DNA of 5,806 nucleotides from the IMG/VR virus record IMGVR_UViG_2541047441_000021; one strand, written 5' to 3'. Each line of letters opens with the position of its first letter. Position 1 is the stretch's first letter. Positions 1 to 5,806 of the stretch are shown in pieces. Source of the DNA: a virus. Taxonomy: Duplodnaviria > Heunggongvirae > Uroviricota > Caudoviricetes. Under the pieces are notes generated by a model. That model ran no database searches, was not told the origin of the DNA, and saw only the letters and a list, made by a program, of their open reading frames with translations. The translations under genes and the position numbers were made by a program.

Positions 1-96
1 GAGGGATAGCAATCCCCCAATTTGAGGGATAGCAATCCCCCAATTTGAGGGATGTTTTATCCCTCGTTTTAGGGGATTTTCCCTCGTTTTGAGGGA
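1..96. repeat. ori iterons of the lambdoid replication origin, lying inside the O coding sequence: four full palindromic ~17-bp iterons (TCCCnnnnnnnnnGGGA type) at about 13-29, 36-52, 60-76, 80-96, plus a half iteron at 1-7
   Basis: Exact 23-bp tandem repeat gagggatagcaatcccccaattt at 1-23 and 24-46; repeated TCCC...GGGA palindromes; embedded in the O reading frame exactly as ori-lambda is embedded in O. Confidence 0.8.
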
Positions 97-445
97 TACA
101 CCATTCTGAGATGTTTTTATTTGGTCCAAACATGCCGCCTTGCTGCTTGATAATATTCATTCTGACGAGTTCTAACTTGGCTTCATTGCACCGTTTGACA
201 GGTAACTTTGTAATCTCGCTAAGTTGAGAATCGGTGATTCTGTCCATTGGTTTATTCCACCCATAGGTTTTACGCAGAATGGCAAGCAGCACTTTAAACT
301 GTCGCTTGGTCAGATCTGCGCCTGAATAAGCCTCAATCAGCATATTTGATAGTCTGGCGTAACCATCATCGAGATCTGCCACATTACGCTCCTGTTCGGC
401 AAAGTTACCTCTGCCGAAGTTGAGTATTTTTGCTGTATTTGTCAT
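1..445 (-). CDS. O: Replication initiation protein O, N-terminal part (gene runs off the left edge of the window)
   Basis: Minus-strand ATG at 445-443; translation MTNTAKILNFGRGNFAEQERNVADLDDGYARLSNMLIEAYSGADLTKRQFKVLLAILRKTYGWNKPMDRITDSQLSEITKLPVKRCNEAKLELVRMNIIKQQGGMFGPNKNISEWCIPQNEGKSPKTRDK... matches my recollection of lambda O; iterons inside the frame. Confidence 0.9.
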   Translation of the reverse strand, partial: MTNTAKILNFGRGNFAEQERNVADLDDGYARLSNMLIEAYSGADLTKRQFKVLLAILRKTYGWNKPMDRITDSQLSEITKLPVKRCNEAKLELVRMNIIKQQGGMFGPNKNISEWCIPQNEGKSPKTRDKTSLKLGDCYPSNWGIAIP

Positions 446-3626: not shown

Positions 3627-4208
3627 TTACTTGTTTTTGCCATGCTTATCCTGAGCGATAAGTTCATCCATAAGACTGTCTTTCTTCCCAGCAAACCTAA
3701 TGTAGCACTCATTTCTATAGCGTTCCGGGATAACAAAACGGTCGATTTCAGGATATCCAGTAGCAGAAGGTACCCGAATAAGAAGCCCTTTTTCGAGCAA
3801 TGAGATTGCTTCAGGGCTTCCCTTTTCTGTCTTTAGCTGGTTATTAGCGGCTACAGCGAATGCCAAATACGCTCTTTCTCCAAGAGTTAACGAATCAAAC
3901 AAATCTTGCACGTATTTCTCTTCTTTAGATTTGCGCTTCTGAGCAGCGAATATCTCAATTCTTTCAGTCACAGCGTGATAAGCGGAATTAACAACGCCGT
4001 TAAGCACATAGCTAACGCAAAACAACAGGATGTAATACATCCAGTAATGAGGAAGGATTTCTGGATTATGCAGGTTTATCCATTCTTTTACGCTTACAGG
4101 CATAACAATAATCAATATAATCAGGATGATTAGCATATGAATCAACTGTTTAAGTGTCATTCCTTGCAGGAAAAAATGCATTAGTTCCTGCCACCATGAG
4201 TTGTTCAT
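3627..4208 (-). CDS. sieB: SieB-like superinfection exclusion membrane protein (convergent with N)
   Basis: 193-aa ORF; N-terminal hydrophobic segments (LIHMLIILIILIIVMPV, YWMYYILLFCVSYVL); size, position between N and ea10, and orientation opposite to the pL operon all match lambda sieB as I recall it. Confidence 0.7.
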   Translation of the reverse strand: MNNSWWQELMHFFLQGMTLKQLIHMLIILIILIIVMPVSVKEWINLHNPEILPHYWMYYILLFCVSYVLNGVVNSAYHAVTERIEIFAAQKRKSKEEKYVQDLFDSLTLGERAYLAFAVAANNQLKTEKGSPEAISLLEKGLLIRVPSATGYPEIDRFVIPERYRNECYIRFAGKKDSLMDELIAQDKHGKNK

Positions 4209-4224
4209 CGGCGTTTCTCTTTTG

Positions 4225-4278
4225 CTCTCTGTAGGGGTGAATAGAGTTTATCCGATTTCTCGCTGTAGGGGTACACGA
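4225..4278. repeat. Direct repeat CTC(n)CTGTAGGGGT(G/A) (4225-4240 and 4257-4278) just upstream of the sieB start
   Basis: ctctctgtaggggtga and tctcgctgtaggggtaca seen directly, about 34 bp apart. Confidence 0.5.
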
Positions 4279-4332
4279 GAACCACCGAGCCTGATGTGGT
4301 TAAAAGACAGGCATACTAATAAACACTGCACT

Positions 4333-4360
4333 GTGTATTCATTCCAACGAGTGAATACAC
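4333..4360. repeat. Perfect 9-bp inverted repeat GTGTATTCA-N10-TGAATACAC (stem-loop or dimeric protein-binding site)
   Basis: Seen directly at 4333-4341 and 4352-4360. Confidence 0.55.
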
Positions 4361-4422
4361 TGAGCAATGTCGCTCGTAACTAAACAGGAGCCGACTTGTT
4401 CTGATTATTGGAAATCTTCTTT

Positions 4423-4449
4423 GCCCTCCAATGTGAGGGCGATTTTTTA
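4423..4449 (+). terminator. Intrinsic terminator on the pL-direction strand upstream of ea10 (tL2-like)
   Basis: Hairpin GCCCTC-caatgt-GAGGGC (4423-4440) followed by gATTTTTTAT. Confidence 0.65.
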
Positions 4450-4468
4450 TCTGTGAGGATATGAACAG

Positions 4469-4837
4469 ATGTCAAACATCAAAAAATACATCATTGATTA
4501 CGACTGGAAAGCATCAATAGAAATTGAAATCGACCATGACGTAATGACAGAGGAAAAACTTCACCAGATTAATAATTTCTGGTCAGACTCTGAATACCGA
4601 CTCAATAAACACGGCTCTGTATTAAATGCTGTATTAATCATGCTGGCGCAACATGCTCTGCTTATAGCAATTTCAAGCGACTTAAATGCATATGGTGTTG
4701 TGTGTGAGTTCGACTGGAATGATGGAAATGGTCAGGAAGGATGGCCTTCAATGGATGGTAGCGAAGGAATAAGAATTACCGATATCGATACATCAGGAAT
4801 ATTTGATTCAGATGATATGACTATCAAGGCCGCCTGA
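4469..4837 (+). CDS. ea10: Ea10-like protein (lambda early-left gene; putative ssDNA-binding function)
   Basis: 122-aa ORF, the size I recall for lambda Ea10; RBS GAGGA 9 nt upstream; immediately upstream of cIII as in lambda. The protein sequence itself is not recalled, so identity rests on size and synteny. Confidence 0.6.
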   Translation: MSNIKKYIIDYDWKASIEIEIDHDVMTEEKLHQINNFWSDSEYRLNKHGSVLNAVLIMLAQHALLIAISSDLNAYGVVCEFDWNDGNGQEGWPSMDGSEGIRITDIDTSGIFDSDDMTIKAA

Positions 4838-4909
4838 GTGCGGCTTTACCGCATACCAATAACGCTTCACTCGAGGCGTTTTTCGTTATGTATAAATAAG
4901 GAGCACACC

Positions 4910-5074
4910 ATGCAATATGCCATTGCAGGGTGGCCTGTTGCTGGCTGCCCTTCCGAATCTTTACTTGAACGAATCACCCGTAAATTACGTGACGGATGGA
5001 AACGCCTTATCGACATACCTAATCAGCCAGGAGTCCCAAAGAATGGATCAAACACTTATGGCTATCCAGACTAA
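4910..5074 (+). CDS. cIII: CIII, inhibitor of FtsH-mediated CII degradation
   Basis: Translation [54 protein letters not shown] (54 aa) matches lambda CIII as I recall it; RBS AAGGAG at 4898-4903. The ORF-track start at 4838 is an upstream in-frame extension. Confidence 0.95.
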   Translation: MQYAIAGWPVAGCPSESLLERITRKLRDGWKRLIDIPNQPGVPKNGSNTYGYPD

Positions 5075-5186
5075 ATTCACTATCGCCACTTTTATTGGCG
5101 ATGAAAAGATGTTTCGTGAAGCTGTCGACGCTTATAAAAAATGGATATTAATGCTGAAACTGAGATCAAGCAAAAGCATTCACTAA
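5043..5186 (+). CDS. kil: Kil, host-killing/FtsZ-inhibiting small protein; overlaps the 3' end of cIII
   Basis: Translation [47 protein letters not shown] (47 aa) matches lambda Kil as I recall it; 32-nt overlap with cIII as in lambda. Confidence 0.9.
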
Positions 5187-5261
5187 CCCCATTTCCTGTT
5201 TTCCTAATCAGCCTGGCATTTCGCGGGCGATATTTTCACAGCCATTTTCAGGAGTTCAGCC

Positions 5262-5558
5262 ATGAACGCTTATTACATTCAGGATCGTCTTGAGGCTCAG
5301 AGCTGGGCGCGTCACTACCAGCAGATCGCCCGTGAAGAGAAAGAGGCAGAACTGGCAGACGACATGGAAAAAGGCCTGCCCCAGCACCTGTTTGAATCGC
5401 TATGCATCGATCATTTGCAACGCCACGGGGCCAGCAAAAAAGCCATTACCCGTGCGTTTGATGACGATGTTGAGTTTCAGGAACGCATGGCAGAACACAT
5501 CCGGTACATGGTTGAAACCATTGCTCACCACCAGGTTGATATTGATTCAGAGGTATAA
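5262..5558 (+). CDS. gam: Gam (short form), RecBCD inhibitor
   Basis: 98-aa translation [98 protein letters not shown] is near-identical to lambda GamS as I recall it; RBS CAGGAG. Confidence 0.95.
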
Positions 5559-5563
5559 AACGG

Positions 5564-5806
5564 ATGAGTACAGCACTCGCAACGCTGGCTGGGAAGCTGG
5601 CTGAACGTGTCGGCATGGATTCTGTCGACCCACAGGAACTGATCACCACTCTTCGCCAGACGGCATTTAAAGGTGATGCCAGCGATGCGCAGTTCATCGC
5701 ATTGTGATCGTCGCCAACCAGTACGGCCTTAATCCGTGGACGAAAGAAATTTACGCCTTCCCTGATAAGCAGAACGGCATCGTTCCGGTGGTGGGCGTTG
5801 ATGGCT
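5564..5806 (+). pseudogene. bet: bet (Red-beta recombinase) 5' part, interrupted by an apparent 1-nt deletion: frame opens MSTALATLAGKLAERVGMDSVDPQELITTLRQTAFKGDASDAQFIAL then TGA at 5705-5707; the Bet sequence continues in another frame from 5707 (IVANQYGLNPWTKEIYAFPDKQNGIVPVVGVDG) to the window edge
   Basis: Both halves match lambda Bet as I recall it but lie in different frames; the window has gcattgTGAtcgtc where lambda has GCATTACTGATCGTT. Confidence 0.8.

Follow-up and report, generated by a model that had tools for sequence, protein, structure and literature searches.

The sieB-ea10 spacer of a ral-less lambdoid prophage matches the early-left regulatory module of lambda and P22 with an empty cargo slot

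The elements found between sieB and ea10 in the early-left region of lambdoid phages were already characterised in lambda and P22 between 1983 and 2024. In P22, the antisense RNA sas switches translation from SieB to Esc (PMC12197685). Its length is 105 nt in a review table, as against the 127 nt of the read cluster named P22A-sas in a small-RNA-seq study of 2026 (PMC13397905, Table 2). Lambda encodes a small RNA called LPR1 and since renamed PreS, which lies between ea10 and ral and whose 3' end is the terminator tL2a of the early left operon; it was seen as species of ~88 and ~68 nt, depends on Hfq and is confined to the lytic cycle (Silverman et al., bioRxiv 10.1101/2024.10.31.621285). According to the same preprint, PreS pairs with dnaN upstream of the ribosome-binding site and thereby activates its translation, and full phage DNA replication needs PreS. 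The published 5' end of PreS appears to have been set from read coverage and the size of a band, without end mapping.

The window, by which we mean the whole 5806-bp stretch of DNA analysed here, comprises the immunity and early-left region of a lambdoid prophage, presented in the pL direction. Its gene order is O iterons, cII, cro, cI, two ORFs in the rex position, N, sieB (on the minus strand), ea10, cIII, kil, gam and bet. Compared over its entire length with the Stx1 phage VT1-Sakai, the window shows 99.77% identity, the differences being 12 mismatches and a 1-nt deletion in bet, none of them in the spacer, and from 4150 to 4520 the two are 100% identical. With sieB starting at 4208 and ea10 at 4469, the spacer between them spans 4209-4468 (260 bp). 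The features of this part of the window are as follows.

3627-4208, minus strand: sieB, 193 aa, from the ORF list; annotated as sieB in VT1-Sakai, which is 100% identical across the region.
4204-4313, plus strand: homolog of P22 sas, to which the 127-nt P22A-sas read cluster aligns.
4222-4238, no strand assigned: proximal copy of a direct repeat, TTGCTCTCTGTAGGGGT on the plus strand; nucleotides +1 to +17 of the sieB mRNA.
4245-4275, minus strand: putative PsieB, by homology to P22; -10 element TAAACT at 4250-4245, putative mRNA start at the A at 4238.
4256-4272, no strand assigned: distal copy of the direct repeat, TTTCTCGCTGTAGGGGT on the plus strand; -34 to -18 of PsieB, including the -35 region.
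4314-4317, no strand assigned: empty cargo slot, TACT, from the blastn mapping of the junction.
4333-4360, plus strand: predicted RNA hairpin with a 12-bp stem (4333-4344 with 4349-4360) and the loop CAAC.
4362-4449, plus strand: PreS/LPR1 homolog, 88 nt, with boundaries from primers P810, P1103 and P1104.
4421-4448, plus strand: predicted intrinsic terminator, homolog of lambda tL2a and 3' end of PreS; stem 4421-4442, T6 at 4443-4448.
4469-4837, plus strand: ea10 (ssb-like, 122 aa), from the ORF list and the lambda alignment, with the Shine-Dalgarno sequence GAGGA at 4455-4459.

Rfam 15, searched over the window at E ≤ 1, returned the cIII thermosensor only and no sas or PreS family, so these two RNAs were identified through the literature and homology. 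A full-length match to the lambda cIII thermoregulator element (RF01804) lies at 4897-4955 on the plus strand (88.5 bits, E = 2.7e-21). Two further observations concern the ends of the window. The ori iteron repeats in gene O (window 1-100) differ from those of VT1-Sakai, with ~5 of the 12 mismatches falling at 60-100. The 1-nt deletion relative to VT1-Sakai, near 5705 (TTGTTG to TTGTG), truncates bet to a 47-aa ORF (5564-5707), which is either a frameshifted recombination gene in the prophage or a sequencing error.

A sequence-only reading of this DNA had noticed that ral is missing from the spacer, and our searches agree. Lambda Ral and orf28 gave no tblastn match in 4209-4468, the best match over the whole window (E = 0.56) lying outside the spacer, and the three spacer ORFs (60, 39 and 31 aa) matched no Pfam family at E ≤ 1, in a search whose positive control, lambda Ral, matched PF11058 at 1.6e-48. 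No remnant of the ral cassette was found in the window at the protein or the DNA level. The 60-aa ORF (4201-4383) was considered as a gene and rejected: it has no family match, and the ral cassette splits the corresponding stretch of lambda. That ral lies between sieB and ea10 in lambda, which the same reading had stated, is borne out by the lambda annotation (ral 34087-34287, orf28 34271-34357).

Comparison with lambda by blastn locates the point from which ral is absent. Window 4229-4313 corresponds to lambda 34480-34396 with 94% identity, and window 4318-5374 to lambda 34055-33000 with 98.9% identity; between these flanks lambda has 340 bp (34056-34395, carrying orf28 and ral) and the window has 4 nt (TACT). 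The junction was mapped by blastn; a MAFFT global alignment against lambda scrambled the left flank. The edges of this slot are conserved, ending in AAAAGACAGGCA on the left and reading (G)AATAA[A/G]CAC on the right, and its content varies among phages. A 340-bp ral cassette occupies it in ev017 and HK140, and 2G7b has 555 bp there. In a Salmonella phage that has both flanks the slot contains 449 bp with an unrelated ORF. P22 has the left flank in common with the window and 810 bp in the slot, followed by a hairpin of its own and a diverged PreS-like sequence. The orf28 and ral cassette (PF11058) fills the slot in lambda, ev017 and HK140 and stands alongside further small genes in 2G7b and P22, whereas the window is without it. 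The slot between sas and the PreS hairpin (4310-4320) is a hotspot of recombination whose edges are conserved. GGCA occurs at both edges of the lambda cassette, and a simple GGCA-to-GGCA deletion was considered and rejected, as it does not exactly reproduce the window junction.

The sequence-only reading had gone further and proposed that a structured non-coding region, made up of the direct repeats, the inverted repeat and the terminator, takes the place of ral. This part failed: in lambda the same repeats, hairpin and terminator flank ral at 94-99% identity. If the region were new and had arisen as a regulatory substitute for ral, with structures that are specific to ral-less phages and compensate for the loss of ral or result from it, this would be in keeping with the true absence of ral and with three structures that are statistically non-random. 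However, every one of these structures is also present in phages that carry ral (lambda, ev017, HK140 and 2G7b, 94-100% identity), P22 having the part with the repeats and sas, and only the 4 nt of the slot are specific to the ral-less junction. We consider such an origin extremely improbable. Judged by these alignments, what separates sieB from ea10 is the usual module of lambdoid phages and P22 without one optional cargo cassette, and nothing replaced ral. The functions guessed for the region, a small RNA, a terminator in the pL operon and the sieB promoter, are each right for one of its segments.

The ral-less allele is common. A 53-nt junction query, built to prevent matches seeded by either flank alone, detected the ral-less junction in 24 phage records, including VT1-Sakai, HK620, HK629, HK630, HK446 and Lambda_2E9, and in 455 of 5426 complete E. 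coli genomes. Of 80 viral contigs with a SieB at least 91% identical, 31 have an empty slot, ~37 have the ral cassette in it and a few have other cargo, 446-1022 nt long. The sequenced ral-less lambdoid phages have a junction (53 nt) identical or 98% identical to that of the window and an equal spacing between sieB and ea10, and they show no difference from the window within the spacer. No additional unique spacer sequence common to ral-less phages was found.

To the left of the slot, the minus strand of the window is identical to that of P22 from -65 to +16 of PsieB, and the position that we give for the promoter is the one that this homology would assign. In the P22 annotation (BK000583) the sieB promoter is at 29690-29720, the sieB RNA starts at 29727 and esc begins 72 nt into sieB. 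Window sieB likewise contains an internal in-frame esc start at codon 25 (ATG 4136-4134), and Met25 is conserved. The window shares with the sieB-esc unit of P22 a near-identical promoter, +1 position and 5'UTR and the esc start at codon 25; it differs by a 1-nt indel in the 5'UTR, and the host is E. coli where that of P22 is Salmonella. Ranade and Poteete, in a 1993 abstract, are said to have identified the lambda sieB promoter through its homology to that of P22.

The direct repeat next to the sieB start is present as had been described, with its coordinates corrected, since the earlier ends (4240 and 4278) were slightly off. The two copies are 17 nt long and identical at 15 of 17 positions, a level reached by 0 of 300 dinucleotide shuffles of the spacer, and they share the core CTCnCTGTAGGGGT at 4225-4238 and 4259-4272. 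The CCCCTACAG core of both copies is kept from lambda to P22, and the coding sequence of lambda sieB diverges right after the proximal copy. In 77 related viral contigs the distal copy is near-invariant, apart from one common G>A change and a single contig whose sequence diverges upstream of the copy. Covariation between the two copies, sought in 77 related sieB loci, gave no usable signal, the block being nearly invariant.

One explanation for this pattern is that the repeats are sites at which a regulator represses or activates PsieB, and not features of the promoter/UTR or of sas. Their non-random identity, their placement (at -34 and +1, 34 bp apart, so that the copies bracket the -10 element at -34 to -18 and +1 to +17) and the retention of the CCCCTACAG core beside diverged sieB coding sequence would all suit such sites. 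However, no regulator is known, and the entire 85-nt block is equally conserved, the repeats not being singled out; the dual constraint of a promoter/UTR on one strand and an antisense RNA on the other could by itself explain the conservation. An RNA-level reading fits equally, as the distal copy within sas can, by sequence, pair at 15 of 17 positions with the 5' end of the sieB mRNA. We regard regulator sites as unlikely and prefer to see the two CTGTAGGGGT repeats as built-in parts of the module, which would be the first 17 nt of the sieB mRNA and the -35 region.

The antisense RNA of P22 also has its counterpart here. Window 4150-4313 is 95.8% identical to P22 (blastn), and the antisense segment covered by the P22 sas reads, with both repeats, is ~96% identical to the window. 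The sas homolog overlaps the sieB mRNA by 35 nt (4204-4238), covering the 5'UTR and the start codon. Within the homolog lie the two repeat copies and a small hairpin formed by AACCAC (4280-4285) with GTGGTT (4296-4301), and its fold as a whole shows no significant structure (z = -1.0). In P22 the read cluster extends with its last ~16 nt into the leader of the ral cassette, which is missing in the window, so the 3' end of sas must differ here. Neither the promoter scan nor inspection of the sequence revealed a sigma-70 promoter for a 5' end at 4204, suggesting that sas is processed from the pL transcript. A strong sigma-70-like site, CTTACA-17-TATAAT (10/12), stands further into sieB at 4093-4121 on the plus strand, antisense to the gene, with the esc start region following shortly after; RNA made from it would run antisense to the starts of esc and sieB alike.

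To the right of the slot lies the PreS homolog, with boundaries taken from the primers P810, P1103 and P1104 in Table S5 of the PreS preprint (bioRxiv 10.1101/2024.10.31.621285). It is identical to lambda PreS at 87 of 88 positions without gaps, and the sole difference is loop base 4432 (A in the window, G in lambda); the authors of the preprint count as conserved a sequence with at least 92% identity to lambda LPR1 and no more than 3 gaps, and the window falls within these limits. The processed form of ~68 nt would start near 4382. The seed lies at ~4392-4423, and the published mutation sites M1 and M2 correspond to 4401-4403 and 4411-4413. Seed, M1 and M2 sites, predicted pairing with the dnaN leader, strand, position upstream of ea10 and the GC hairpin with its U tract are the same as in lambda, while the upstream neighbour differs, being ral in lambda and directly sas/sieB in the window.

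The PreS homolog is predicted to be structured (z = -3.85), and its seed region forms a predicted duplex of -31.9 kcal/mol with positions -48 to -11 of E. coli dnaN, a value that 0 of 500 shuffles reach. RNAduplex on full-length PreS against dnaN was uninformative, with 63 of 300 shuffles as good. The terminator that had been noted before ea10 was found on the plus strand by a terminator scan, with coordinates slightly corrected from 4423-4449; its 8-bp stem has 5 G-C pairs and a 6-nt loop, and it lies 20 nt before the ea10 ATG at 4469.

Related sequences vary at a few positions. The PreS allele with A at 4432 occurs in 10 sampled viral contigs, and T at -1 of PreS in 2 of 87 distinct sequence variants. 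P22 (BK000583, ~28740-28841, pL strand) has a diverged PreS-like sequence, ~81% identical over the first ~60 nt, which has a hairpin (ATAGCAGA with TCTGCTAT) upstream and a terminator, both its own; gene 17, in the position of ea10, follows directly. HnrS and EcOnc10-12, other sRNAs of EHEC prophages, were considered and set aside as unrelated, being located in late genes. The main text of Tree et al. 2014 names none of the genes flanking the spacer locus.

Between slot and PreS, the inverted repeat reported in the sequence-only reading is exact, GTGTATTCA (4333-4341) with TGAATACAC (4352-4360); a perfect 9-bp inverted repeat arose in 4 of 300 shuffles of the spacer. As plus-strand RNA the element at 4333-4360 is predicted to fold at -21 kcal/mol (z = -5.6). 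Its 3' edge is 1 nt before the PreS 5' end, and with mismatches it can be extended to 4323-4370. The -1 base of PreS is G in lambda and T in the window (4361), a change that shortens the hairpin by 2 bp. The 120 viral contigs with PreS homologs contain 17 distinct upstream variants, which represent four sequence families unrelated to one another: a lambda type, a P22 type and two more. Every variant folds as a hairpin whose 3' edge is 1-3 nt from the PreS 5' end, and z ranges from -2.9 to -6.8. The plus-strand RNA is more stable than the minus-strand RNA in 6 of 6 variants tested, because of G.U pairs in the stems. That the structure is kept across families and folds better on the plus strand argues for a role at the RNA level, on the pL transcript. 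In the organisation of the locus, the hairpin marks the fixed right edge of the cargo slot.

We also weighed whether the inverted repeat is a DNA operator, for instance for a dedicated PreS promoter or for ea10, rather than an element that folds as RNA. A 9-bp palindrome without mismatches, spaced by 10 bp and adjoining the PreS 5' end upstream, is what such an operator could look like. However, four unrelated sequences that all form hairpins imply that structure is conserved and not a binding sequence, and G.U pairing with better folding of the plus strand in all six variants again speaks for RNA. The promoter scan returned no sigma-70-like promoter in the spacer, and hence none upstream of 4362, so we did not adopt a dedicated promoter for PreS or sas. 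Moreover, the restriction of PreS to the lytic cycle fits transcription driven by pL. An operator here seems very unlikely.

RNase III, RNase E or another enzyme might act at the hairpin. A hairpin processed by RNase III has ~20 bp or more of duplex and is cut within the stem. The stem of the lambda type measures 12-14 bp, or 22 bp if 3-4 mismatches are allowed, and stems in the other families are at most 11 bp, which is less than a classical RNase III site requires. As the sequence upstream shows no evident sigma-70 promoter, PreS is probably cut from the pL transcript, beside the hairpin. Our tentative reading, held with somewhat less than even confidence, is that 4333-4360 is a conserved RNA processing or boundary element, which may define the PreS 5' end at excision from the pL transcript and may also close off, as a cap, the 3' end of the RNA upstream. 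The PreS preprint (bioRxiv 10.1101/2024.10.31.621285) treats neither the hairpin nor the biogenesis of PreS.

The spacer as a whole is very probably the ral-less allele of the standard lambdoid/P22 early-left regulatory module, consisting of PsieB with sas, the empty slot, the hairpin, and PreS with tL2a. The analysis shows the homology, where the elements lie, the junction, that the seed is intact and that the structures are conserved, and from these likenesses the elements would be expected to act in the prophage as they do in lambda and P22. On the minus strand, a constitutive PsieB would produce the sieB mRNA with a 30-nt 5'UTR, and the plus strand of the same DNA would encode the sas homolog. 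As in P22, sas would pair with the sieB 5'UTR and start codon, so that SieB translation stops and the internal Esc start stays active. The slot at 4314-4317 is the vacant site in which other phages carry ral or other small genes, with the hairpin set at its unchanging right-hand boundary. PreS, Hfq-dependent and ending at tL2a, would pair with the dnaN leader, raising DnaN translation and boosting phage DNA replication, as described for lambda.

The structure-conserved hairpin is the sole item in the spacer for which we found no earlier description, and it offers a lead on how PreS is excised from the pL transcript. If our reading of it is right, sas and PreS in ral-less phages would form a compact tandem unit of two sRNAs, ~246 nt in length. 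For the spacer of Stx1 prophages of the VT1-Sakai type, the annotation can now include PsieB, sas, PreS and tL2a, which are unmarked in public records and in Rfam 15. The intact PreS seed in Shiga-toxin prophages suggests that these prophages, too, probably boost host DnaN on induction.
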